This document shows positions 33,014 to 60,068 of a stretch of 64,000 nt of DNA, one piece after another. The translations under genes were made by a program, and so were the position numbers. Position 1 is the stretch's first letter. The number at the start of each line of letters is the position of its first letter. The notes below the pieces were generated by a model that worked only from the letters and a program-made list of their open reading frames with translations, did no database searches and was not told the DNA's origin. Source of the stretch: a virus; the IMG/VR virus record IMGVR_UViG_3300050821_003463, positions 1 to 64,000 of that record; one strand, given 5' to 3'.

Positions 33014-34186
33014 CTAAATGGCTTCCAGGGCAGCGGCAACTTGTTCATCGTTCAACCTCTCCGTCGTTATCTTCTCGGCTTCTGATTTAATAGTATCGAA
33101 GAGAGGTTCCTGTGTCAAGTCCAATCTTCGATAATTTTCGTTCTTGAAACCGTACCAGCCTTTCGGAACTCCGTTGCCCGTTCCTGCCTTGACGTCTTCC
33201 TTCGTCTGGTCGCCTTCGATCACCGCGCCGATTTTGATCGCGTACGCAACGACATCGCTCTTGAGATCGAACCCAGTCTCGTACAGCAGGTTGACTATCG
33301 TCTCGCGGAACGGAGGACCCACTTTGTTCTTCACGTTTTTGATCCGCATCTTATGCCCGATGTGGACTGCCTGATCATCTCTGATCTCGCCCCCATCTGT
33401 CTTCGACAACCGACGCACTTCCAGTCGTACAGATGACCAGAACTTCAGCGCGCGCCCACCAGTAGTGACTTCCGGATTTCCGAACGTCACGCCGATCTTC
33501 TCGCGCACCTGATTGATGAAGATCACCAGGACTCCTGCCCTGTGCGCCTTCGCTACGATCTTACGCATCGCCTGGGACATTAGCCGCGCGTGCAGACCCA
33601 TGTGACTATCGCCCATGTCGCCTTCGAGTTCGGCTTTAGGAACGAGAGCCGAGACAGAGTCAACGACGATGATGCGAAACGCTCGCGTGTCGATCAAGCC
33701 ATCGAGAACTTCCAATGCCTGCTCGCCGTAATCCGGCTGGCTGATCAGCAAGTTGTCGACGTCAACACCCAGCTTCTTCGCATAGTTCGGATCGAGTGCG
33801 TGCTCTGCGTCAATGAATGCTGCGAAGCCGCCCGCGCGCTGCGCCATCGCGATGAAGTGCAGGCTGAGCGTGGTCTTACCGGATGATTCCGGTCCATAGA
33901 TTTCAACTACGCGACCATCCGGTAGACCGCCGCAAGACATTAAAATCTCGTCAAACGTTGGCATGCCTGAAGCAAGGCAAGGTAGACGGACTCCCGTCTT
34001 CTTGCCCAGCTTCTGGATGAGTTGCGTCTCGTACTCGGCGTTGAACGAGCGGATGACACCGTCAATCGCCTTTAGCTTATCAGCCTTCGAGAGTTCCGGC
34101 AGCTTGACTAACTTCTCCGCTTTCTTCGACGGGGGTGCCGTCACCGAGGACTCCTGGTTGGGACTGACCTTGACCTGTAGAGACAT
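33014..34186 (-). CDS. recA: RecA recombinase
   Basis: EIYGPESSGKTT, FIDAEHALD, VVDSV, IFINQVREKIGV.FGNPEVTTGGRALKF, KNKVGPPF. Confidence 0.97.
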   Translation of the reverse strand: MSLQVKVSPNQESSVTAPPSKKAEKLVKLPELSKADKLKAIDGVIRSFNAEYETQLIQKLGKKTGVRLPCLASGMPTFDEILMSCGGLPDGRVVEIYGPESSGKTTLSLHFIAMAQRAGGFAAFIDAEHALDPNYAKKLGVDVDNLLISQPDYGEQALEVLDGLIDTRAFRIIVVDSVSALVPKAELEGDMGDSHMGLHARLMSQAMRKIVAKAHRAGVLVIFINQVREKIGVTFGNPEVTTGGRALKFWSSVRLEVRRLSKTDGGEIRDDQAVHIGHKMRIKNVKNKVGPPFRETIVNLLYETGFDLKSDVVAYAIKIGAVIEGDQTKEDVKAGTGNGVPKGWYGFKNENYRRLDLTQEPLFDTIKSEAEKITTERLNDEQVAAALEAI

Positions 34187-39424: not shown

Positions 39425-39690
39425 GGTTTCCATCCCTCCAGGTGCCAGAATTTTACTTCCAGATCGCGAGCCGTGGTCCGGAGAACCTCGATTCGCAACT
39501 TCCCGCCGTGAACTCCATCGATATGACAGTGCCTGCAAAGCGTCAGGAGATTTGACATCTCATCAGAGCCGCCCGCGCTCCGGTAGATCACATGGTGCGG
39601 ATCGAGCGTCTGTCGGTTCCCGCAGTGTCGGCACTTCCAGCTATCCCGCTGATACACCGCGTTGCTGATCGCTCTTGGCAGGCTCGGCAT
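39421..39690 (-). CDS. small HNH endonuclease
   Basis: RDSWKCRHCG, HHVIYRSAGGSDEMSNLLTLCRHCH. Confidence 0.85.
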   Translation of the reverse strand: MPSLPRAISNAVYQRDSWKCRHCGNRQTLDPHHVIYRSAGGSDEMSNLLTLCRHCHIDGVHGGKLRIEVLRTTARDLEVKFWHLEGWKP

Positions 39691-40693
39691 AATACTCCCA
39701 TATCCCGTTTGCGTAGTCAACGATAATCGTATCGCTCGGCAAGACTTGCCCAGTCGCAACGAGTCTGCCCAGGGGTGTTGCGACGTGCTGGTCAATCGTC
39801 CGTTTCAGGTTACGGGCGTTATATCTCCGGTCGTACCCTTCCTTCAAGATTTGCCGCAAGCCCGAAGGGGAGACTTGAAACTCAAACTGTACGGGTGAGT
39901 GCGATGCGATCCGGTCCCACAGTTTCTCCAGCTCCAGGCTAAGGATCGAGTCGAGGTCGCTCGGCGTCAAAGTCTTGAACATGATGACCTTGTCGAGCCG
40001 GTTCAAGAACTCAGGCTTGAACTTGCTGCGTGCCGCAGCCATAGCGATCTCTTTCATCTGTGATTCGCTACGTTCCTTGGTGCTGCCAGTAAAACCAATT
40101 GCACTTTCATCGGCTAACTCAGCGGAGCCGACGTTGCTGGTCATGATGATGACGGTAGAGGTCAAGTCGACGACCTCGTTCGCGCCCGTAGTCAGGGTAC
40201 CCTTATCGAGAATGCCCAGCAAGAGATTCCACAGAGAGTCGCTCGCCTTCTCGATCTCATCGAACATGATAATCGTGAAGGGCATTAGCTCGCTGTGGGC
40301 AGTCCCTGAGCGTGCCGCGAGGACGCTTGCGTTCGTGAAGAACGGGTGCGTCTCACGGTGTCCCAGGTAGCCTGGGGGAGAGCCGACCAACTTTGCGATC
40401 TCGTGGCTGTGTTGGAACTCCGCACAGTCCACCTTCAACATCTTCTTCGGGTCGCCAAATAGACCTTCAGCAAAAGCTTCCCCGACACCGGTCTTGCCGA
40501 CTCCGGTAGGTCCGAGAAACAGCAGACTCGCTATCGGCTTCGTCCGGTCGTAAAATCCGCTCTGGAACTTCTCCAGAACGGAGGAGAGGGCTGTGGTCGC
40601 TTCAGTCTGTCCCACTATACGGAGAGAGAACCGCGACGCGAGTGCCTGTGCCTTGTAGCTCTGTCGATTCAGGTCTAGCTGTCGAACTGTCAT
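39641..40693 (-). CDS. stand-alone ClpA/ClpB D2-type AAA+ ATPase
   Basis: IVGQ, FLGPTGVGKT, GSPPGY, FDEIEKA, IMTSNVG, PEFLNRLD, YNARNLKR; no N or D1 domain. Confidence 0.9.
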   Translation of the reverse strand: MTVRQLDLNRQSYKAQALASRFSLRIVGQTEATTALSSVLEKFQSGFYDRTKPIASLLFLGPTGVGKTGVGEAFAEGLFGDPKKMLKVDCAEFQHSHEIAKLVGSPPGYLGHRETHPFFTNASVLAARSGTAHSELMPFTIIMFDEIEKASDSLWNLLLGILDKGTLTTGANEVVDLTSTVIIMTSNVGSAELADESAIGFTGSTKERSESQMKEIAMAAARSKFKPEFLNRLDKVIMFKTLTPSDLDSILSLELEKLWDRIASHSPVQFEFQVSPSGLRQILKEGYDRRYNARNLKRTIDQHVATPLGRLVATGQVLPSDTIIVDYANGIWEYYAEPAKSDQQRGVSAG

Positions 40694-40703
40694 GCAACGC
40701 ACC

Positions 40704-41459
40704 TCACTGGTCTTGAAGTTTTTGTTCGAGTTCTGCGATCTGTTGGTTGATGTCTTCAATCGGGTCGTCGTCGACGTCCGAAAGGTCAGGAGCGCCCATC
40801 TCTGCGGGTTCCGTGGGGTTGAAGTTCTCATCCGCCAGGAAGTTCGCACAGATCATCTCCAGCGCTGCGCCGTCGCTCGGATCGACGAAGTTTCCGTCAT
40901 CATCCTTCGTCTGGGACTCAGGCATGTGCTTCTTCGCCAGAGCCAGAGCGGGCTTAACGCAGTTCTCACGCGCGAGTTTCTTCAGGTGGATGTTGAGCCA
41001 CACCATTGATTCGTCTTCAGTAAGCCCAAGGATCGTTTCGACCTCAAACGTTACCTCTTCCAGGGACATACCGCTAGCTTTCTCGGTGAGTTCCTTGATG
41101 ATGAGCGGCATTGGAACGCCTTTAAACTCACCCTCTAAATTCAGCCGAGAGATCACACGCAGCTTGCCCATCCCAACGGGCTCATACACATCGCGCCCCA
41201 GACCGACGCCCTTCATAAGTTCGATGACCTTGACGTAGTAGTAGGCACGGCTGTACTTAATGCTCAAACTCTTTGCGAACTTTGAGAAAGACTCGAAGTC
41301 AGGTGAGTAGTAGTGATTCGACTTCGCCTCGTGCAGCAAGTCAGCGATGTCAAATTCACTGCTGTTAAGACCTTTGATCAGCTTGTTGATATCCCTGCGC
41401 ACCTTCGCGGCGCGCCCAGCTTCGATCTCTCCAACTACAGCAGGAATGTTTGGTTCCAT
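40704..41459 (-). CDS. hypothetical protein, possibly DNA-binding
   Basis: GGAGG RBS; HTH-like FSKFAKSLSIKYSRAYYY; acidic tail. Confidence 0.6.
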   Translation of the reverse strand: MEPNIPAVVGEIEAGRAAKVRRDINKLIKGLNSSEFDIADLLHEAKSNHYYSPDFESFSKFAKSLSIKYSRAYYYVKVIELMKGVGLGRDVYEPVGMGKLRVISRLNLEGEFKGVPMPLIIKELTEKASGMSLEEVTFEVETILGLTEDESMVWLNIHLKKLARENCVKPALALAKKHMPESQTKDDDGNFVDPSDGAALEMICANFLADENFNPTEPAEMGAPDLSDVDDDPIEDINQQIAELEQKLQDQ

Positions 41460-49711: not shown

Positions 49712-49924
49712 TCACCGGAAGTGCCTTCCTGTCTTCGGCGCGGAGGGGATTGGCTTCTTCGCCGTCAGACGATACGTAAGATAGTTAGACGGCTGAGGCA
49801 CGACGATTGAGAAAACTTCCCAACCATCCTGTGCCCACTCGTTGCACGCTTGCTGTATCTTGTCGGGTTGCGTCCAACTGTCGACATTGTTTACGACTAT
49901 GCGCGAACGGAATTCATATGTCAT
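49712..49924 (-). CDS. DUF4177-like protein ending TGRHFR
   Basis: YEFR...NEWAQDGWEVFSIV pattern. Confidence 0.6.
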   Translation of the reverse strand: MTYEFRSRIVVNNVDSWTQPDKIQQACNEWAQDGWEVFSIVVPQPSNYLTYRLTAKKPIPSAPKTGRHFR

Positions 49925-50952
49925 CGAAATTTTCTCCCAGTGGTAAAAAGGGGCTTGCTCGCACCAGCCGGTAACGCTGGCGTGCCCGCCGCTGCCTGCT
50001 GTCGAAGGAACTTCTGGAACGCTTCCTGCTGATCTTCCGGCATCAGCGCGACCGGCGCAGCGCTCGGCTTGACGCCTTCTGATAGCATGACCTTCAGGAT
50101 GTGCTTACACTCTGTACGTGGGGAGTGCTGCGTAAAGTTAGGGCACGAGCAAGCCCAGCCCTCAGCCGTTGTCGAGCCCTTCGGATTCACAGTGCGACTG
50201 ACCACGTAGGGTGCCTTCGCCGTGCCTTGCACAGTCCACTGCGTTGTCCACATCGGGGAGTTCGACTTCGGCAGTTTTCGCACCTCACCGTTCTTCATCG
50301 GAGGTGTGACCTTCTTTACCTTCACGAAAGACGGCTTTACGTGATCTTCGATATTCACAGTTCCCTTTCCGCTGCAGGCAGGGCAATGCGTGCCCGACCA
50401 GTCTGCCTGATTGTGATACAGATTGCAACCGAGACAGCGCACGACAGCGTACTCTATCTTCGGTCCAAAGACTTGCGCCCAGCTTTTAATTTTCTGAGAA
50501 ACCTGCTCCACCGTAGTCGGCGCAGTGATCGTGTCGCCCCACTTCTCGTACTTCCACATCGGCTTGCCGTCTTCGAGCACTCCACCTGAAGTGTCATTGA
50601 GCGCGCGCCGATAGTAGCCCTTCAGGTTGCTGTGGATGGGAACTGTAGGTTTTTCTTCCATCGCGTCCGCGTTATCCCAGATACCGGTTATGTCTTTCTG
50701 GAACGGAGACGCATAGTGGATGGGGTGTTTCGACAGCGGTATCCTGGGCGTCTCGTTCGTTATGGTCTTGACCTTCTTGCCGCACTTCGTGCAAGTGAAA
50801 ACTATCTTGGTGCCCGCCCAGTCTGCTGCGCCCACCGTGTTGAAGTGCGCGCACTTTGCCTGCTCAACGCGACAGGATGAGCATAGCCCGTCCCCGTGGG
50901 GAAAGTCTTCCGTATGGGTCGCGCACTTCGAGCAGTTGACTTTTGCCATCAC
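49921..50952 (-). CDS. multi-Zn-finger protein with SWIM domain, ending TGRKFR
   Basis: Several CxxC motifs; WACSCPNF...CKHI. Confidence 0.75.
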   Translation of the reverse strand: MMAKVNCSKCATHTEDFPHGDGLCSSCRVEQAKCAHFNTVGAADWAGTKIVFTCTKCGKKVKTITNETPRIPLSKHPIHYASPFQKDITGIWDNADAMEEKPTVPIHSNLKGYYRRALNDTSGGVLEDGKPMWKYEKWGDTITAPTTVEQVSQKIKSWAQVFGPKIEYAVVRCLGCNLYHNQADWSGTHCPACSGKGTVNIEDHVKPSFVKVKKVTPPMKNGEVRKLPKSNSPMWTTQWTVQGTAKAPYVVSRTVNPKGSTTAEGWACSCPNFTQHSPRTECKHILKVMLSEGVKPSAAPVALMPEDQQEAFQKFLRQQAAAGTPALPAGASKPLFTTGRKFR

Positions 50953-51019
50953 ATCCTCCGGTTAAAAATGAGGCTGGCTACCCGACGGATCGGACCAGCC
51001 CCTGCCAACAACAAAAACT

Positions 51020-51112
51020 TTACGCCCGTACCCAGGCTTCCAGCTTCGCGACGATCCACATCACTTCAAGCAGGATAAACATGCCCAGCCCTTCGGTCAC
51101 CCATGCGCGCAT
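51020..51112 (-). CDS. 30-aa single-TM microprotein
   Basis: GGGAGG RBS; MRAWVTEGLGMFILLEVMWIVAKLEAWVRA. Confidence 0.5.
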   Translation of the reverse strand: MRAWVTEGLGMFILLEVMWIVAKLEAWVRA

Positions 51113-51134
51113 AGAACCCTCCCGTGTACTTTGT

Positions 51135-51362
51135 ATACTGATGCTCCAATCCCGTTAGACTGGAGCACCAATTTGGCGTCATGCCCGTTCTTTGCGTTTA
51201 CAGCCCGTTTAAGCGCCCCAGGTTTCGTGGGGTGCCTGAGACTCACCTTTGCCCTCCGACCCCCTGTTTTCGGGCGGGAAAGTGGGTACGTTTGCGGGTA
51301 CAGTGAGCCCGCAGCACCCACATCGCCAGGACACCCCGTACTTTTGGGGTCGGGGGAGTCCG
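51135..51362 (-). ncRNA. candidate structured RNA
   Basis: Nested GACTC/GAGTC, CCGACCCC/GGGGTCGG, GTGGGT/ACCCAC and TGCGGG/CCCGCA helices plus two hairpins. Confidence 0.5.
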
Positions 51363-51562
51363 CAGCGAGGACAGCTCATCGAGTCCTCCGCGCCTGCTCG
51401 CCCTCATCCTCCCACCCCGTGTACGGCTCAGGGGTAGGCTGCTGGCGACAGTCGGCGCATAGGAGTTCCGTCTCGCTCACGGTCACGCCACACGCACCGC
51501 ACAGGTTAACCCGTGGCTTGCGCTGTTGGTTGATGCGGGCTTCCTTCGCTCCGTACGACATG

Positions 51563-51982
51563 TCAATTTCCTCCTGCGGCTGCTGCCGCTGCTAGATTCA
51601 AGCTGATGATATGCGGAAAGCAGGCATCAGTATGGTACTGCTTCGCTGTGAAGTCAACATAAAAATACGATGTCTTGACGATGGCGTGCCAGGATGACTT
51701 GTTATAGGCAGCGCTGTCGTGCTTGCCGAGGGAGTAGAGCGTTGGATCGGGGTTATGCTGTCCAAAGGCGTAGTCGACTCCATGCGGATAGATGCTGAAG
51801 TCGTAGCGAGATAGTTCTCCCTGGTAGCCCTCTGTGCGTGCAAAGCGGATGAAGGCGTCGCTCGTGCTATCGCACATGCAGTACGCACCGTCGGGAGTGT
51901 CGAGCCCGTACAGCCCGGGCTCGCAGTTCTTGCTATGCCGAGACTCCGCGAACTTCTCGATGAGTTTCATGAGTTCATCCAT
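51563..51982 (-). CDS. papain/transglutaminase-like Cys-His-Asp protein
   Basis: C(DSTS)...WHAIV...VDFTAKQY. Confidence 0.55.
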   Translation of the reverse strand: MDELMKLIEKFAESRHSKNCEPGLYGLDTPDGAYCMCDSTSDAFIRFARTEGYQGELSRYDFSIYPHGVDYAFGQHNPDPTLYSLGKHDSAAYNKSSWHAIVKTSYFYVDFTAKQYHTDACFPHIISLNLAAAAAAGGN

Positions 51983-53329
51983 CGCTAGTTGCCCTCGAAG
52001 AACAGATTGTTGTGTTCGTGTTCACGCTCCAATGCCACAATGAGCACACGTATCGCAGCCTTCCCTCGTTCCGTCAGAGGGTCGTTGATCATCCAGAACT
52101 TCAGGCGTCGTGCCACTTCGTCGAAGTTAAGCCTGTGGTCCCTGGTGTACAAGCGACCGTCACCGCTGTAGTAGATATCTTCCTGTGGCATAGTTTCCTC
52201 CGAGTGAAATGATCGAGCGGGTTGGTGGTCCCCGCCCGATTTTACTGAGACGACTTAGCGCGCCTCGTTGCTCCACGCCTCAGCGGGAATCGTTGCATTA
52301 GCTTCCGGTGCATTTTATATGAGTGCCATCGTGCAACGTCCAGAGAGTCCGACAAAGCGACCCCCTGGGAAGAGGTTTGCCACATGAGGAGCAGCGATCC
52401 TCGCGTGCGATCTTGCCGATGGCGGACTGTATGACATCAGTGAGCGGGATTGACTTGCTGACCGGCGCGCGTAGCCCTTTGATGATCGATAGCGCGCCGC
52501 GTCTATCGCTCACATGCATGCCGCCCAGCTTCGAGCGTTTCAGCATGAGTTGTGCGAGCAGTATAACGGGGGAGTCCGGTACGCCGACGCCCCAGTTATC
52601 CATTCTTAGCTCCTAACTGCTGCTGCTTGTGAGCGTCGAGCCGTTTTCCAACTGCGTCGCCCAGGTCATTTACATTTGATTTCACAGCCAGCGTACTGTT
52701 TGACGGTGCGTTGAAGAGGACGAGATCGTACACACAACCCTCGCACTCTTGGATGCCGACGTACTTCGCGCCAGCCTTCTCGACTTGCTGCTTGAGATAC
52801 TGCTCGTAGACATCATCCAGCATTCGCTTCATTGATTCCTTCCGTAGATACAGCCTATGCCGTACATCGCAGCGTCGATTACCTTCTTCGCCGCCCGCAG
52901 CGTCATGCTACGGGGGCGAAGCACAAGGCGAGCGACGCGTCGCCAGTAGACGTCACGCTCCGCTGCTGTGTAGAGTAGCGCGTCCCTCATCGTTTGCCTC
53001 GATTCAGTTCCGCGTTCAACCTCTGGAACGGAGTCTCGGCGCGGGGAGGTGGAGTCGCGAGGACGCAGAGTACAGGGAAGCCACAGATGGTCTGTTCAAC
53101 CAGCCGTGTCTTGAACCCGACAGAGCGCAGGCTGAGCGCTCTCGCGATAGCTTGATTCAACCCTGCGACTGTTAAAGGAAGCGTACAACTGATCTCTTCC
53201 ATAAGATTCTCCTCAAGAGTTTGGTTGCGACGTGGACAGCGACAGCGATAAAGTTGATGGTTGACAGAAGAATAGCATACCACATCAGCCATAGATCGGG
53301 GTGCGTGAAGTGCCCGTGATAGAACATGC

Positions 53330-53839
53330 TCACCTCGTGCAGTAAAAACCCTGTTCGATGAGCAGCCACACGAACCCGATTCGATTGATAAATCCAGGTC
53401 GCTGCACCATCAGTGACTTGATTGGCGTAGGGAGTTCAAAAGGCGGCATCACGAAGGTCACACAGCCCTCGCAGCCTGTCTTGTTGGAGCGCGACGGTGC
53501 GACGTGGTAGCCCTCGCCCTCTTTGAGTTCTGCCCCACAGGTCAGCTTGCGGTACTGCTGGCGCACTGCGAAGTCCATCTCAGGGCACTGCGCTTCTAGG
53601 TGCAGGCTGGTCTGCGCTTCAGGAGTGCGCAGGTAGTCTATGAACCGGTCGAACTCTGCGACCTCTGAGTCGTGGGGAGAGAGCACAGTGAGGGAACGCG
53701 GGACGCGTGAAGCGGGGACAGGTTTCAGCGAGTTGGTCTTGACGGTGAACTCGTTGTCGTTATCATCCCGTATCTTTGAGAGGGTGCCGGATTGCTCCAG
53801 CACCTCCACAGTTGACTTGCGATAGATCATGAGTGACAT
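53330..53839 (-). CDS. hypothetical protein
   Basis: 169 aa; TAATG overlap with the upstream gene. Confidence 0.6.
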   Translation of the reverse strand: MSLMIYRKSTVEVLEQSGTLSKIRDDNDNEFTVKTNSLKPVPASRVPRSLTVLSPHDSEVAEFDRFIDYLRTPEAQTSLHLEAQCPEMDFAVRQQYRKLTCGAELKEGEGYHVAPSRSNKTGCEGCVTFVMPPFELPTPIKSLMVQRPGFINRIGFVWLLIEQGFYCTR

Positions 53840-54017
53840 TATCGGCTCCCTACAGGCAGAACGCGAGCCGCGCCTGTGGCGGTATCAAATTCTACGGATA
53901 TGTATTCATCATATTCGATGAACTTATCTTTCAGCGCAACAGTAGCGCTCGCGGCATTCATATACTCGCCTTCTGTTGCGTAGTCGGGGTCCTTGAACGT
54001 GCAGATGAATTTTGCCA

Positions 54018-54449
54018 TCACCGCACCTCCTGATCGAGCAGATGGTTGACGATGATTGCCTTGCCCTTCGCGATGCAGCCAGGGCACGTCACAACCCAGG
54101 TATCCAAGTAGCAGCGGGTCACTGCGCCAGCCTTAGCACAGAGCGTGCTGCCTTCCTGGATAACGTGGCTGTTGGTTTCGACATCGTACGCGCTGGTGTT
54201 CAGGATGTGAAAGTGATGCTCCCCTGCGACCAGCACCGTATTGAACGGCAGAAGCTTCTGCACGTCTCCGTCTGCGATGCTGCGTTTGAGTACCTCGCGC
54301 TCCAGCCGATCAAAGTCAAGTATGATTAGCGTTGCCGTGGGTGTGAGTAAGTCGACGCTTGGGTCGACAACGTCAAACGTGGTGGATGCCTTGGCGAGCG
54401 CTGCTCGAAGTTCAGACTGGCGCAAAGCTTGATATTGAAATTCGTTCAT
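54018..54449 (-). CDS. hypothetical protein with C-terminal Zn motif
   Basis: H...LC...VTCPGC. Confidence 0.6.
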   Translation of the reverse strand: MNEFQYQALRQSELRAALAKASTTFDVVDPSVDLLTPTATLIILDFDRLEREVLKRSIADGDVQKLLPFNTVLVAGEHHFHILNTSAYDVETNSHVIQEGSTLCAKAGAVTRCYLDTWVVTCPGCIAKGKAIIVNHLLDQEVR

Positions 54450-54790
54450 AGGGTTACCTTTCGCTTGGCGAGTTCCGCCAAAAGTTCGAACGTTGAAAAA
54501 TTTTTCAGAGTCTTTCGTCCCTTCGGATGCCTCTGGTTTTTAATGCTCTGCCTGCGGGTTGCCCACCGTACGTTGCCTACAGCATAATGCCCATCGTTTT
54601 CAATTCGGTCAAGCATGCGACGTGAGGGGCGTTTGCCGAGTTCTGCGAAGAACTCCTCGAATGAGGTGAACAGGAATTTTATTCCCCGTCCACCATAATT
54701 CGGGAAGTCTGTGCAATTCGGATTCGTGCAACGATTACGAGCATCGTAGTAAGCCCGCCATTCGACGGGGTGTGTCTTGTAGGGTTTCAT
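54446..54790 (-). CDS. HNH-like endonuclease
   Basis: RC.NP...NYGGRGI, LDRIENDGHY..GNVRWAT. Confidence 0.8.
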   Translation of the reverse strand: MKPYKTHPVEWRAYYDARNRCTNPNCTDFPNYGGRGIKFLFTSFEEFFAELGKRPSRRMLDRIENDGHYAVGNVRWATRRQSIKNQRHPKGRKTLKNFSTFELLAELAKRKVTL

Positions 54791-54792
54791 GT

Positions 54793-55008
54793 TTACTGCT
54801 TCAGCGTGTTCTTGTGCTGAGCAGGCTTGTTGAATTCACCCTTGTGTGTGACCTTCACGGTTTGCCCGATTGCATTCCCGAAAGCCTGTGCGACTGCGTC
54901 GCAGCCTTTGCCCTGGTACCCATTCAGGTCTACCGTTTGGTCGCCGGTGGCGATGTCAATGTTGATGGTGATTATCTTAGCCAAAGTGCCCTCACTTTCG
55001 GTTGTCAA
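54793..55008 (-). CDS. DUF2997-like protein
   Basis: ITINID..G...VDLNGYQGKGC....F..AIG. Confidence 0.75.
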   Translation of the reverse strand: MTTESEGTLAKIITINIDIATGDQTVDLNGYQGKGCDAVAQAFGNAIGQTVKVTHKGEFNKPAQHKNTLKQ

Positions 55009-55399
55009 TGAATTGGAGTTGAACTTTCCCGTTGACGATCTTCTTGCCGAGGAACTGCAGACCGTTCTTGCGCGCGGTCTTCATGTCCACCTTCTCGGTA
55101 TACGCGACCTTCAGTTTCGTCATCCAGGTAGCGTCGTGCTTGTTGCTATCGTAGTCGCTGACGATTGCGCTGTAGGTCCCGTCCGCTGCTTTGACAAAGC
55201 CGAGATCGTTCGCTGCGCTACCTATGTGCTGGCGGCGCACGATGACGTTGGCTGTCTGTGCTCGCTTGTCGCCGTGATAGCCGAACAAGTTCTGTGCGAC
55301 TTCGTTCACTTCCACGTTCTTGTAGCCCATCTCACCAAGGGCTTCGACAAGACAGTCGCGATCTTTGTACTGTGTCTTCTGTGTGTGGTATGCGCTCAT
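54992..55399 (-). CDS. DUF1257 (Ycf35)-like protein
   Basis: MSAY...T..KD...LVEAL.EMG, DLGF....DG.Y..IVSDYD. Confidence 0.8.
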   Translation of the reverse strand: MSAYHTQKTQYKDRDCLVEALGEMGYKNVEVNEVAQNLFGYHGDKRAQTANVIVRRQHIGSAANDLGFVKAADGTYSAIVSDYDSNKHDATWMTKLKVAYTEKVDMKTARKNGLQFLGKKIVNGKVQLQFIDNRK

Positions 55400-55674
55400 G
55401 CTATTCGTTCTCCCTTCGAATTTGTTTGCCCGCGTTGACGAGAATGTCGATTACGTTAACGGCGTCTTGCTGTGAAAGTTTGCCCGCGTTCATCGACCAG
55501 CCGACATACAATAGCGCGTGGGATATCTTGAGATACCCGGGTGTGTGCCACGGTTGCTTCATCGTGTTCCCCTCTCATAATAGTTGGCGCGCGCTTCGAG
55601 TGCTGCGCGCTTTGCCTGTGATCCGCGCCGCCACATGTAGACCAGCGCGACGATTGCGAGACTGAAGATAACTT

Positions 55675-56133
55675 TCATAGTGTCCTCTCAGCAAAGAATT
55701 TATTGAGGAAGGCGATCTCCGCACTGATAGCTGCTTGTCTGTCGTGCGTCGTGAACGTCCGGTGATCCATCCACGCAGCGACGGGCGACGGTGCGACATG
55801 CTCCCAGGTTAGAACAGGTCCGCCGACAGGGGACGTATCGACTCGCCACTCGCATGCCCACGTTCGTGTCCACGCTGCGACCTTGCTCGTGTCGCTGGAG
55901 AGTATACGAAGTAGATTGAAGGCGAGACGCAGTAGCCAGCCTGCGGGTTCTACGTGCGACGCGCGCTTCGTGATCACCTCTCCGAGTTCGAGGAAGCAAT
56001 CTGCGCTGTCGGTCTTCAGGAAGACTTGGTCACCATTCTCATCTATCGTGACGGTGATAATCTTGTGCGCTGGAATCGGGAACGTCTTGGGATATCGCGC
56101 GTCGTACCCTTCAGGTTTTGAGATGTGCTTCAC
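55675..56133 (-). CDS. conserved-type protein with RASHVEP and WxVDxSPVGGP motifs
   Basis: Motifs recalled from small proteins that accompany DUF1257/DUF2997 operons. Confidence 0.6.
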   Translation of the reverse strand: MKHISKPEGYDARYPKTFPIPAHKIITVTIDENGDQVFLKTDSADCFLELGEVITKRASHVEPAGWLLRLAFNLLRILSSDTSKVAAWTRTWACEWRVDTSPVGGPVLTWEHVAPSPVAAWMDHRTFTTHDRQAAISAEIAFLNKFFAERTL

Positions 56134-56192
56134 AGATGTTCTCCAGTGTTATAGAGGTGAGGGGCGGCTGTGTGAGCCCGCCCCTGTTGAGT

Positions 56193-57104
56193 CTAGCGAA
56201 ACTTTCTGCCAGAGGTGATAACCATCGTCTTCAGTTCAGCGCGTACGCCTTCGAGTTGAGAGATGACGTACTGTTGAAGGTTGCCCGACTCTTTCAGGCG
56301 TTCGACCGTGACACCCTGCATCGCGTTCTTCACGACTTGCATGTTCTTCATGAAGTCCACGTCGTTCGCGAGATCACGATCAGGCAGCGTGTCGAGGAAC
56401 TCTTGCAGGTGCTCGACGTGACAGCCGTACATCTTCTTCGTCTTGCCCGCTTCAGGCTTGAGCATCGCGAAGAGTGCGTCGACCATCTCAGCACCAGCCA
56501 AGCGCATCGCATCGCGCCACTCGATAACAGCCTGCATGCGGATGCTGCGTTCCTTCTCCTGCTCACGGGCGATAATGATATCGCTCATGCCGGTGAGGTT
56601 CACGCTGCCGACGTTGCGGTAGTTGAACTCCAGAACGAAGCCAGCCTCTACTGTGTCGCTCGCTGGATAGTCGCTCCGGTCAAAGTTCTCAGCAAGAACC
56701 TCGCGCAGCGGTTGAAAGTCTACCGCTTCGAGTTCCCTGTACTTCGTCATGAACGCCTCGACTAACTTGGGGCGTCGAATCGTCTGGTATGCGACGATGG
56801 CGCGGTCCACTTCGTTCAGCCACTTGCGCGGAAGGAAGCGCGTTGCCTCGCGATACCAGCATGACTTGGACTCGACGTAGCGCTTCAGGAAGCCGTCCTG
56901 TGAGCGAATCTCTTCGAGTTCGGGTGAGTCCATCAGGCGTTTCTGGTGACGCAGTTCACTCGCCTGTGTAGCGGTTTCGACTTTCAGATTCTTGATCTGG
57001 CGCATGCGACCGATGCCCATGCGGAAGTTGATGGTGATTGAGACGCAGCTTTCAGTCTTGCTCAGGTCAACGTTCGCGACGGGTGCCACTGCGGGTGATG
57101 CCAT
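56193..57104 (-). CDS. DUF3150-like protein ending SGRKFR
   Basis: K.L.D...L, FLP, FDRSDYP, F...F pattern; operon context; GGGAG RBS. Confidence 0.6.
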   Translation of the reverse strand: MASPAVAPVANVDLSKTESCVSITINFRMGIGRMRQIKNLKVETATQASELRHQKRLMDSPELEEIRSQDGFLKRYVESKSCWYREATRFLPRKWLNEVDRAIVAYQTIRRPKLVEAFMTKYRELEAVDFQPLREVLAENFDRSDYPASDTVEAGFVLEFNYRNVGSVNLTGMSDIIIAREQEKERSIRMQAVIEWRDAMRLAGAEMVDALFAMLKPEAGKTKKMYGCHVEHLQEFLDTLPDRDLANDVDFMKNMQVVKNAMQGVTVERLKESGNLQQYVISQLEGVRAELKTMVITSGRKFR

Positions 57105-57246
57105 TTTATTTTCTCCCATAAGAAGTTTGTGGCGCGATTTATTTTGTGACTACGTCGCGCCGTCGGTCAGCCTGAGCCGCCGTGCTTACTGCGACTTCAG
57201 TTCACTACAGTTTAACGTCATGGAGTGAGCGTATGGACGGTTGCTA

Positions 57247-58797
57247 CTACCGCATCTTGCGTCCTTCCGTTATCTTCACGGTCGGCGCGTGCTTGGTTGC
57301 GGGTGGAGTGTACTTGTAGACGCCCTGGTTAGATGCCGACAGGAAGCGGTCGGTAGCTCCAGCGCGTAGCACCTCCATCTCTTCTTTATGACTGGTCATC
57401 AGAGGGATGATGTATTGACCAGCATCTTCCAGCGTGACGCGCATCTTCCGCGCCTTGTTAGCGCAGTTCTTGATGTCGCGCCCAGTCCAGCCCGTCATGT
57501 CGGGGTAGGTCTGTGCGGGGAGTTTGTTCGCTGTAACTTTCAGGTCCATGATGCCCTTCTTCTCTTCGTCGTTCGGCGCATCAAAGAAGAAGATGTCAGC
57601 GAAGCGGGAGAGCAGTTCGGGCGGTAGACCGTCCAGTTTGTTTGCGGTTGCGATGAGCCACACGCGACCGTCGCTAATGGATTGCACGGTGTGATTCGCG
57701 CTCACCATGTTTTTGTTCGAGTTGCCAACCAGTGAGTCTTGCATTTTTGAGATGCTGTAGTCGATGACTGGCTTGTCGAACTCACCAGCGATGCAGTCGA
57801 TGCTGTGCGACTTAGACGAGCCCGGTACACCCAGGAACAACGAGCAGTAGATGTCGTTATCGTTCACCCAGGTCAGCCACTCGCCAAGTAGGTCACCCTT
57901 GACGCCGCTGCTGTCGGTGTCGTTCCCTGAGAACTGGCGTTGTATCTCATCCATCCTCAGAATCACGGTGGGTGATTGCTCACCAGTCATCAGCTTGCGA
58001 CCGTATGCCTTGATCGATTCAACCCCGTACAGGTCCTTCAACTTCAGACCACCTGCGCGGTAGGTCAAACCTTTCTGCTGGGAGACGATAGTCTTCTTGC
58101 GAAGCCACAGCGTCTCGATATCCAAAATGCCCTTCGCTTTGTCCAAGCACATCGCAGTCGCCTGCTCTGCTGGGAAGAGAGGGATTCCGATGAGTGCGTC
58201 AACAGCGTTCAAGACTACCGCTTCACTCGGTCCAGCCTTGCACGCTGCGTACTTCACTTTGTCACTCGCGTATGCGTACGCGTATGTCTCGCGGACGATT
58301 GCTGCGAGTTCAGCGCGCGTCGGCAGTGGATGCTCTAGCACCAGCGTGTCTTGCTGCAACACGACTGGGATGCTGTCACCGATTCCGAGGAGTAGCACGC
58401 ACATGTTACCGCGCGCCTTGTAATCGTTGCGCAGATTGGCAACACCCTGGATGACTTTCTTGTCATCGTCCCAGGTGAGCTGCGGATTGAGGATGAATGC
58501 GAGGACATCTTCCTGCGCTGCTTCGAGGATGCCAAGCGCGATGGGCAGGTCAACCGATGCGCCGACTTCCATGCCGCTCTCGCTCGCCATCTTCTGTAGA
58601 GCGCTCGTGCCAGCGTCTGTAAGCCCGCGTAGCCCGTGGATGCTGTCCCAGGCTATGAAGGGGGTGACCTCTGCGAGTTCAGCGCCCAGCGAAGCCTGTA
58701 TCGTCGTAATGGTCGACGTAGGATCGAAGGTGCGGATAGCGACGGTCGGGGTCGATACCGCGCGTGCGTCAGTGAACATCTCAATGAATGACTTCAT
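57247..58797 (-). CDS. Ycf46-like AAA+ ATPase with permuted Walker B/Walker A order, ending EGRKMR
   Basis: Ycf46-like N domain (WD...GL, LP...EL); ILRMDEI upstream of FLGVPGSSKS; then LIATAN, LPPELLSRF, FFFDAP, GWTGRDI. Confidence 0.85.
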   Translation of the reverse strand: MKSFIEMFTDARAVSTPTVAIRTFDPTSTITTIQASLGAELAEVTPFIAWDSIHGLRGLTDAGTSALQKMASESGMEVGASVDLPIALGILEAAQEDVLAFILNPQLTWDDDKKVIQGVANLRNDYKARGNMCVLLLGIGDSIPVVLQQDTLVLEHPLPTRAELAAIVRETYAYAYASDKVKYAACKAGPSEAVVLNAVDALIGIPLFPAEQATAMCLDKAKGILDIETLWLRKKTIVSQQKGLTYRAGGLKLKDLYGVESIKAYGRKLMTGEQSPTVILRMDEIQRQFSGNDTDSSGVKGDLLGEWLTWVNDNDIYCSLFLGVPGSSKSHSIDCIAGEFDKPVIDYSISKMQDSLVGNSNKNMVSANHTVQSISDGRVWLIATANKLDGLPPELLSRFADIFFFDAPNDEEKKGIMDLKVTANKLPAQTYPDMTGWTGRDIKNCANKARKMRVTLEDAGQYIIPLMTSHKEEMEVLRAGATDRFLSASNQGVYKYTPPATKHAPTVKITEGRKMR

Positions 58798-59248: not shown

Positions 59249-59531
59249 GTTGTCTCCTAGATGAAGCGGGTTCTAATCTTAGCGCCCAACGTCCAGCATG
59301 GACGCGGCGCGCCAAGGTTCTGTGAGCTGAAGGGGTAGTTCACGAAGGGGTCGTGTATATTCAGTGCCTGCTCGAAGCTTATCGAGCGCTCACGAGTAGT
59401 GCGGAACGCGCGTCCACTCTCGTGTACCGTGATTGATATTTTCATGATGCCCTCTCTACGTTGCTGCTCACAGTGCCGCAGCGCATTCAGAAGCCGCTTG
59501 GTGCGGCGCGTACTTCGTTGCATAGACCCTC

Positions 59532-60068
59532 CTACTGATGGCACAAGCCTGATTGGATGAGCGATACTGCAGTGCGCCCGTAGCTGCCCTGCAGCGACCA
59601 CGCCATGCCGTTGTCGATGAGGTGCTGGAAGAGGATCACCAAGTCATCCTGTTCGAGTTCACCGTTTTCAAACGCGATGATGTTGCCAGTGATATCATAC
59701 TGCGCTCGCACGTTCTTCTGTGCGAAGTTCGTAATGATATACGCGATGCCCTGCTCGAAGGTGCCGTCACTGTTCTTGCTACCCAACCCGCCGAATGACT
59801 TCGAGCCGGTGGGCAGTGAGACGTGGATGCTAGCAGAGCCAAAGCACTCGCCGTTCGATGCGTGTGAGACGCCGTACTTGATATTGAAACCACCAGGGAG
59901 AGTCGGTTTAGCGAACGCCTGCTCCCTGTAGCAGAGCGAAGCGTATGAGTAAGCGGTGCCTTTCACGTAAGCGACCGATACGCCAGCGCGTTCAAGCTGT
60001 GCTTGGATTGACTTCAAGCGACTGTAGATGCGTGAGGTGATCTGCTTACTGCTCAGTCCTGCGCCCAT
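59532..60068 (-). CDS. hypothetical protein with conserved-type C-terminal domain
   Basis: AGGAG RBS; FQHLIDNGMAWSLQGSYGR. Confidence 0.65.
   Translation of the reverse strand: MGAGLSSKQITSRIYSRLKSIQAQLERAGVSVAYVKGTAYSYASLCYREQAFAKPTLPGGFNIKYGVSHASNGECFGSASIHVSLPTGSKSFGGLGSKNSDGTFEQGIAYIITNFAQKNVRAQYDITGNIIAFENGELEQDDLVILFQHLIDNGMAWSLQGSYGRTAVSLIQSGLCHQ

Follow-up and report, generated by a model that had tools for sequence, protein, structure and literature searches.

We analysed the first 64,000 nucleotides of the IMG/VR virus record IMGVR_UViG_3300050821_003463 (hereafter the window), which lie within a single virus contig of 94,543 bp. Four open reading frames (ORFs) of the window, encoding proteins of 70, 343, 308 and 516 amino acids, end in a peptide of the form GR[KH][FM]R (Table 1). 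These tails were first pointed out in a first-pass annotation of the sequence, and the positions and codons given there all match our own reading. The genes for the 516-aa AAA+ ATPase and the 308-aa DUF3150-like protein belong to a block of five genes (AAA+, DUF3150-like, 152-aa, DUF1257 and DUF2997-like; hereafter the module) that is kept in 13 of 13 longer related loci, including that of Tunturiibacter phage Tunturi_3, a cultured relative that infects an acidobacterium and the only cultured one found. When the whole contig was scanned for ends of the type GR[KRH][hydrophobic]R, five ORFs of at least 60 amino acids were recovered, the fifth encoding a 116-aa protein outside the window. Shuffled sequence (100 shuffles) gave a mean of 0.04 tail-ending ORFs and a maximum of one, so the observed count is not due to chance. 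Enrichment across related phages, which had been suggested as a check, was also found: three related genomes, all complete or nearly so, each had 4-6 hits on the module strand when scanned with the back-translated pattern, and a control pattern gave 0-1 on each strand. Real ORF ends account for 5, 4 and 5 hits in the three genomes, the few others being spurious, and the additional hits proved to be 116-aa orthologues.

Table 1. Carriers of the C-terminal tail, the other proteins of the module and two further genes of the window. Positions are those of the window unless stated otherwise.
Feature	Position	Strand	Remarks
70-aa protein	49712-49924	minus	C-terminus ...KTGRHFR*; TGRHFR codons 49715-49732
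343-aa SWIM-like protein	49921-50952	minus	C-terminus ...TTGRKFR*; TGRKFR codons 49924-49941
308-aa DUF3150-like protein	56193-57119	minus	C-terminus ...TSGRKFR*; SGRKFR codons 56196-56213
516-aa AAA+ ATPase	57247-58797	minus	C-terminus ...TEGRKMR*; EGRKMR codons 57250-57267
116-aa protein (fifth carrier, outside the window)	genome 70018-70368 (L001:6018-6368)	minus	C-terminus ...ITQGRRFR*
152-aa conserved module protein, RASHVEP motif	55675-56133	minus	no tail; in 13/13 longer related loci; candidate receptor
DUF1257 protein	54992-55399	minus	PF06868, E 3.9e-9; no tail; candidate receptor
DUF2997-like 71-aa protein, invariant GKGC	54793-55008	minus	no tail; no Pfam match at E<=0.01; candidate receptor
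Single-ring ClpB-D2-type ATPase (AAA_2 + ClpB_D2-small)	39641-40849	minus	Pfam
Full RecA	33014-34186	minus	PF00154, E 5e-107

The family labels that the first-pass annotation had given to these proteins proved uneven. That of the AAA+ ATPase stands: the 516-aa protein matches PF00004 over residues 320-365, and its AlphaFold2 (AF2) model (predicted local distance difference test, pLDDT, 92.7) contains two α/β domains, with residues 500-516 disordered. In a Foldseek search the protein aligned over its full length to Cdc48/p97, Rix7 and NVL (E 1e-11 to 1e-10, probability 1.0), a likeness at the level of the fold only, identity being ~12%. The D1 half has no P-loop in the sequence as read. Taken together, the Pfam match, the two modelled domains and the Foldseek matches point to a tandem AAA+ protein with a degenerate D1 and an active D2. 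Judged by its fold, the protein is of the Cdc48/p97 type (type II, tandem) and Ycf46-like; a planctomycete homologue ending GRKFRLN carries the UniRef name ycf46-like. D283-E284, an invariant pair of D2, lies where strand 278-282 ends, some 40 residues ahead of Walker A (323-330), and no Walker-B strand was seen between strand 344-347 and the sensor-1 strand 379-385 (WLIATAN).

The other labels are weaker. No Pfam match at E<=0.01 was obtained for the 308-aa protein; its nearest ESM Atlas clusters (score 0.95-0.96) carry DUF3150 (PF11348) in 31-43% of their members. The AF2 model of this protein (pLDDT 80.5) is helical with a disordered tail, and fold searches with it returned only generic four-helix-bundle matches (Foldseek E>0.5; VIA Z at most 9.2, which is in the noise range for helical proteins). 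The 343-aa protein has a Pro/Ala/Gly-rich linker and a SWIM-like CxCx12CxH arrangement, read as CSCPNFTQHSPRTECKH, and the Pfam SWIM model did not match it at E<=0.01. For the 70-aa protein, the similarity to DUF4177 covers only residues 19-43 and reaches 20.7 bits (E 4.9e-4), below the gathering score of 25 bits. The tails of both the AAA+ and the 308-aa protein are modelled as disordered (AF2 pLDDT <55), in agreement with the flexible linker that had been proposed to precede the motif. Searches of PDB sequences gave no match, NCBIfam and PADLOC scans nothing useful, blastn against the phage collection no close relative, and scans of genome contigs with the 308-aa alignment and with the planctomycete AAA+ P0303 no match.

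The tail is strongly conserved in orthologues. Among 120 homologues of the 308-aa protein (43-100% identity), [GST]R[KR][FI]R forms the C-terminal end in 116, down to 43% identity; one of the other four has the motif followed by two residues and three are seemingly truncated. In 120 homologues of the AAA+ protein (52-100% identity), xR[KR]ΦR (Φ, hydrophobic) is exactly terminal in 86 and followed by 1-4 residues in 32, which makes 118 in total. Orthologous families were also obtained by clustering the tail-bearing ORFs of four IMG/VR and 34 metagenome loci. They comprise the 308-aa family (38/38), the AAA+ family (32/32), the SWIM family (11 members), the 70-aa family (4), the 116-aa family (3) and a few singletons, together with a family encoded just upstream of the SWIM gene, in whose nine tail-bearing members S or G-E-G-E follows the motif. 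All 11 SWIM orthologues found (9 distinct at the DNA level) have [GT]R[KR][FI]R, ten of them at the very end; the copy in locus L038 has one extra residue after it (GRKFRV). In L011 and L020/L021 the 70-aa orthologue, which is encoded at the same position, has GRKFR as its end. Conservation reaches beyond five residues, with a hydrophobic residue at -8 and often at -10, giving roughly Φ-x-Φ-x-x-G-R-[KR]-Φ-R, and few parts of any carrier family are as well conserved as the tails. Loss of the tails from homologues had been set beforehand as the outcome that would speak against a functional motif; the homologues clearly retain them.

To place the motif in a wider context, the AAA+ protein was searched against the full library, which yielded 862 cluster representatives (one per 50%-identity cluster) at E<1e-30. 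Many of the representatives that are 32-45% identical to it have GR[KR]Φ near the C-terminus, usually followed by a few variable and often acidic residues. Across 80 diverse IMG/VR loci chosen by this AAA+, the ATPase is present in 79 and a DUF3150-like gene adjoins it in 76, while DUF1257 was detected in 45, DUF2997 in 40 and the 152-aa family in 31 (the last three counts after iteration with hidden Markov models). The AAA+ and the DUF3150-like protein, the two core proteins, both end in a related peptide in most of the 80 loci, and few lack one within 18 residues of the end. Examples of such pairs (AAA+ / DUF3150-like) are GRKMRD / GRKFRDE, GRRMKA / GRKFKEV, RRAIAVPDDED / GRAIDLDDEDDE, SRAISLED / LRAIEVD and HRKIDLN / IRKFDLEA; other distant tails read RAISFEDE and RKIDLDD. 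In Tunturi_3 the AAA+ ends in GRIIR and the DUF3150-like gp96 in DRKFHLEGEEF, and no other gene of that genome has a tail. Set beside the tails of the distant pairs, GRKΦR-COOH of the window clade is an abridged form of an RxΦxΦ-acidic motif that is older. On these sequence comparisons, the motif is ancestral to the AAA+/DUF3150-like pair and not peculiar to this phage. Tunturi_3 gp96 (PP885686.1 67395-68354; L007:23621-24649), annotated as an HNH endonuclease, shares 23% identity over 308 aa with the 308-aa protein (E 5e-11) and is its homologue; the annotation is probably wrong.

Tails of non-homologous proteins match one another within a genome. Where the tails of other genomes contain F or M, all six of genome L006 contain I or V, and the codons used there by the DUF3150-like (ATT) and AAA+ (GTC) genes differ from those of the other four tails. 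In a more distant clade, 1-3 extra residues follow the motif in every family of the same genome. Accessory ORFs bearing the variant of their own genome occur in L046, L053, L049, L044, L068, L082 and L104, with CGN as well as AGR codons (N, any base; R, purine). For example, three ORFs of L046 end in GRKFR[DN]E and two of L053 in GRKFKxxL; the variant is GRKFKEA in L049, R-x-I-[EQ]-I in L068 and RRIEL[ED] in L082 and L104. Compared with the DUF3150-like tail of their own genome, 58 accessory tails agree on average at 5.19 of 8 positions; random pairing gave 3.17, with a maximum of 4.03 in 2000 permutations. Most of the accessory proteins have no Pfam family, and one has a weak WGR match. A YqaJ-type exonuclease encoded at L082:9417-10499 ends in ARRIELE, the local tail variant.

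A C-terminal motif thus exists that is conserved as amino acid sequence with free synonymous change, is placed on disordered ends and agrees within genomes across non-homologous proteins. We propose that it is a docking motif acting at the protein level and read by one shared, probably phage-encoded receptor, and we put the probability of this reading at roughly one half. The tail would be a short linear motif at the end of a disordered linker. In the window clade its form is Φ-x-Φ-x-x-G-R-[KR]-Φ-R-COOH, and in distant relatives it reads R-x-Φ-x-Φ with acidic residues after it. It would belong to a two-gene core of a very large group of soil phages, made up of a Cdc48/Ycf46-like tandem AAA+ protein and the adjacent DUF3150-like protein. 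A single receptor site would read the motif and co-evolve with it, and other proteins would have acquired the local tail in each lineage and so joined the same hub as clients or adaptors. The SWIM, 70-aa and 116-aa proteins are proposed to be of this kind, as is the YqaJ-type exonuclease of L082, whose local tail is a hint that the clients of the module may include a recombination enzyme. The receptor is most probably encoded in the module, the AAA+ ring being the first candidate, followed by the DUF3150-like core or the DUF1257, DUF2997 and 152-aa proteins. We infer a location within the module on two grounds, namely that the motif and the AAA+/DUF3150-like pair are constantly associated and that there is established precedent: disordered C-terminal tails serve as docking elements in Cdc48/p97 and the proteasomal ATPases, and adaptors such as SspB dock on AAA+ proteins via a basic-hydrophobic extreme C-terminus.

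Several observations weigh against this proposal. The first is that neither complex prediction nor co-variation across the module proteins found the receptor. Complex prediction with AAA+ residues 1-500, 308-aa residues 1-300 and the SWIM tail (residues 306-343) gave scores of 0.09 and 0.00 against a mark of 0.32, which speaks neither for nor against an interaction. At columns 97 (D vs K/R), 353 (E/Q vs K) and 131 (N vs R) of the AAA+ protein the charge changes with the tail class in the direction expected for tail contact, but this signal is not significant once relatedness is controlled (4-7 independent changes on the tree), and clade-specific columns equally strong as those of the AAA+ are present in DUF1257, DUF2997 and the 152-aa protein. 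The AAA+ protein also carries the tail itself, which is awkward for the AAA+ as receptor. As for the matching within genomes, the p-value of the permutation is optimistic because the genomes in the test are related, and a tree-controlled test of AAA+ against DUF3150-like tail class was not significant (four independent changes, two in the same way and none opposite). In some genes the tail codons are, moreover, constrained also as a ribosome-binding site (see below), and a host-encoded hub differing between hosts would produce the same agreement within genomes. The first-pass annotation had likewise suggested a common docking or sorting signal. The conserved, disordered ends and the within-genome variants fit that suggestion, and our searches singled out none of the hubs it had listed (a DUF1257/DUF2997 complex, the AAA ring or a host factor).

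Shared docking tails are known in principle; what is new here is this motif, its carriers and its machine. One well-known case is that of the sliding clamps, which are bound by C-terminal peptides such as bacterial QL[SD]LF and, in phage T4, by the gp45-binding tails of gp43, gp33 and gp55. Like these, the tails described here are extreme C-terminal peptides that follow a flexible linker and are shared by unrelated proteins of one genome. The observed or putative clients (a YqaJ exonuclease, a SWIM-like protein and, in one locus, a protein with a weak WGR match) come from families usually linked to nucleic acids. Unlike clamp-binding peptides, however, they are either basic (GRKΦR) or consist of RxΦxΦ plus acidic residues, with neither a conserved Gln nor an aromatic pair, and their GR[KR]ΦR ends do not have the QL[SD]LF- or SLDFLF-like pattern of the bacterial and T4 motifs. 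No clamp or clamp loader was seen among the ~40 phage proteins scanned against Pfam.

Another comparison is with the hydrophobic-Tyr-X (HbYX) and other C-terminal tail motifs of Cdc48/p97, PAN/Mpa and the non-ATPase proteasome activators. These systems resemble ours in that a Cdc48-like tandem AAA+ protein has a disordered C-terminal motif that is also found on non-ATPase proteins. A tail common to the AAA+ and to non-ATPase proteins implies competition for, or sharing of, one docking pocket. The sequence itself is different: instead of hydrophobic-Tyr-X, the phage tails have F, M, I or V followed by a final Arg, so that the last three residues are K/R-Φ-R, and Tyr occurs in only 2 of 120 AAA+ tails. 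A 20S-like or PUB/PUL-like partner was not detected among the genes scanned. The third comparison is with Clp proteases. The XB tail of SspB (…LRVVK-COOH) binds the N-domain of ClpX, which also recognises C-motif-2 signals such as that of MuA (…RRKKAI-COOH). In both cases an AAA+ unfoldase has its adaptors tethered or its clients marked by short basic/hydrophobic peptides at the extreme C-terminus, and the resemblance to the phage tails is one of composition only. The phage AAA+ protein differs from ClpX in being Ycf46-like, with a degenerate D1 and no zinc-binding N-domain; it bears the tag itself, and it has no known peptidase partner.

The module proteins belong to or resemble Ycf46 (AAA+), Ycf35/DUF1257 and DUF2997 of cyanobacteria and plastids, and DUF3150. 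To our knowledge, no mechanism has been described for any of these families, and no mention of a shared C-terminal motif in them was found in the literature searched. A full-text literature search also returned no description of the module or of the motif, consistent with the earlier remark that none was known.

Sliding clamps, proteasome activators and Clp adaptors are organised by shared C-terminal peptides, and the same logic may operate in a five-gene phage module that is present in many contigs of the public metagenome and virus collections searched. A more specific form of the docking proposal, which we advance tentatively, is that the tail is the client code of a phage machine composed of the AAA+, DUF3150-like, DUF1257, DUF2997 and 152-aa proteins, into which each genome recruits by means of its own peptide. 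If this is true, the client list of each machine could be read from sequence in hundreds of uncultured phages, and the lists would differ between lineages, with a recombination exonuclease among the clients in one locus. The tag also provides an experimental handle, since it could be used as a 10-residue bait for the receptor, and a scan of a genome for the tag predicts clients. It may, in addition, shed light on Ycf46, Ycf35 and DUF2997 of cyanobacteria and plastids, which are still unexplained.

Instead of a phage protein, the tail could dock on a hub of the host, such as the N-domain of a protease-associated unfoldase, the sliding clamp, RNA polymerase or the ribosome, and bring the AAA+, DUF3150-like and accessory proteins there. 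The presence of the tail on the AAA+ protein itself would then be readily explained, and adaptation of the phages to different hosts would also yield variants that differ between phages and agree within a genome. There is, moreover, well-established precedent for hubs of host or phage being bound through shared C-terminal tails, as the clamp-binding motifs and the SspB XB tail illustrate. We nevertheless consider a host hub unlikely, given that the motif stays with the AAA+/DUF3150-like pair across very diverse phages, and that conserved host hubs usually impose one fixed motif, whereas the range here extends from GRKFR-COOH to RAISFEDE.

It is also rather improbable, in our view, that the tail is a degron, which the first-pass annotation had considered, or an engagement tag. 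Such a C-terminal peptide would be gripped by a phage or host AAA+ unfoldase or protease for timed remodelling or removal, much as C-termini of the ssrA or MuA type are gripped by ClpX. Its terminal or nearly terminal position, its disorder and its basic-hydrophobic-basic character would suit such a role. The phage encodes both the Cdc48-like AAA+ and a ClpB-D2-type ATPase, and basic C-terminal ClpX signals of the MuA type are known. Yet the putative unfoldase bears the same tag as its supposed substrates, and no protease partner was evident among the genes scanned against Pfam, which are part of the gene set of the genome. In distant phages the motif is followed by up to ~12 residues, mostly acidic, so the motif does not need an adjacent free carboxylate.

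A signal at the level of DNA or RNA could in principle have produced the tails as a by-product, either because a Shine-Dalgarno sequence, spacer and ATGA overlap are read in frame or because a boundary cassette was spread by recombination. The tail DNA of the SWIM gene, GGG AGA AAA TTT CGA TGA, is also a Shine-Dalgarno sequence with an A/T-rich spacer and an ATGA overlap with the next gene, whose ATG shares bases with the TGA stop (window 49921-49941). The tail DNA of the 116-aa gene, GGC AGG AGA TTT CGA TGA (genome 70018-70038), likewise combines a Shine-Dalgarno sequence, a spacer and an ATGA start/stop overlap. Such overlaps (ATGA or GTGA) were found in 9/9 distinct SWIM-family gene ends and 3/3 ends of the 116-aa family, and the first Arg of the tail is encoded by AGR in 8/9 and 3/3 of them, respectively. 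In addition, L006 and L020 contain non-homologous genes with near-identical tail DNA of 15-18 nt.

The two core families are different in this respect. In the 308-aa and AAA+ genes the stop codon is TAG or TAA and is separated from the next start by 60 and 128 nt, respectively, and both families keep the peptide while codon choice is free; in the 308-aa family all six Arg codons are used (Arg-2 is CGN in 23 and AGR in 7) and the downstream start is never overlapped. Furthermore, the genome has ~25 other ATGA junctions at which the encoded tails are unrelated, and the register of the Shine-Dalgarno sequence is not the same in the two overlapping genes: it coincides with the codons for G-R in the SWIM gene and with those for R-R in the 116-aa gene. 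Accessory tails of distant phages use CGN codons, and some of these genes have true Shine-Dalgarno sequences downstream of the stop. Neither of the two core families lies at a gene junction, so a pure ribosome-binding-site artefact can be rejected, and for these families an origin of the tails as a by-product is largely refuted; overall we regard it as very improbable. In our view selection acts on the peptide and, wherever another gene starts immediately after it, has favoured codons that also serve as a ribosome-binding site. The overlap explains the codon choice in the SWIM and 116-aa genes, not the peptide. The first-pass annotation had argued from the differing codons that the motif is not a DNA repeat and reflects selection on the protein. 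That argument is sound for the 308-aa and AAA+ tails, in which synonymous change leaves the peptide intact, but it overlooked that the tail DNA of the SWIM and 116-aa genes has a second function, and also that the motif is of ancient standing in the AAA+/DUF3150-like pair. Tail codons that double as a ribosome-binding site place overlapping constraints on one stretch of DNA, which is a warning for motif hunting in compact genomes.

The genes around the carriers encode RecA, a family-A DNA polymerase, a primase-helicase, a superfamily 2 (SF2) helicase, endonuclease VII, the ClpB-D2-type ATPase and RNA-repair enzymes, identities that place the tail-bearing genes in a replication/recombination block and not in the structural block. 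A role of the tail as a packaging or ejection signal (compare the cargo-loading peptides of HK97-fold encapsulins) or as a basic patch that binds nucleic acid would agree with a C-terminal peptide on a flexible linker that is basic in the window clade, but is highly improbable, packaging being made unlikely by this position of the genes, none of which is in the structural block, and nucleic-acid binding being rejected on account of distant variants that are acidic overall (RAISFEDE, RKIDLDD).

A similar sequence, SGRAFR, had been noted at 59401-59418 (minus strand). It is present and has counterparts in related loci; however, it is internal and not a C-terminal tail, lying in a small protein encoded at 59257-59601 (minus strand) whose likely start is MKISITVH…, and it is probably unrelated to the tails. 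Homologues of this protein in L003 and L015 have GRSFR at the same site, near the N-terminus, and the homologue in L016 has LRGFR. The internal GRAFR of the protein is followed by RERSISFEQ, which resembles the RxISFE variant of the distant tails.

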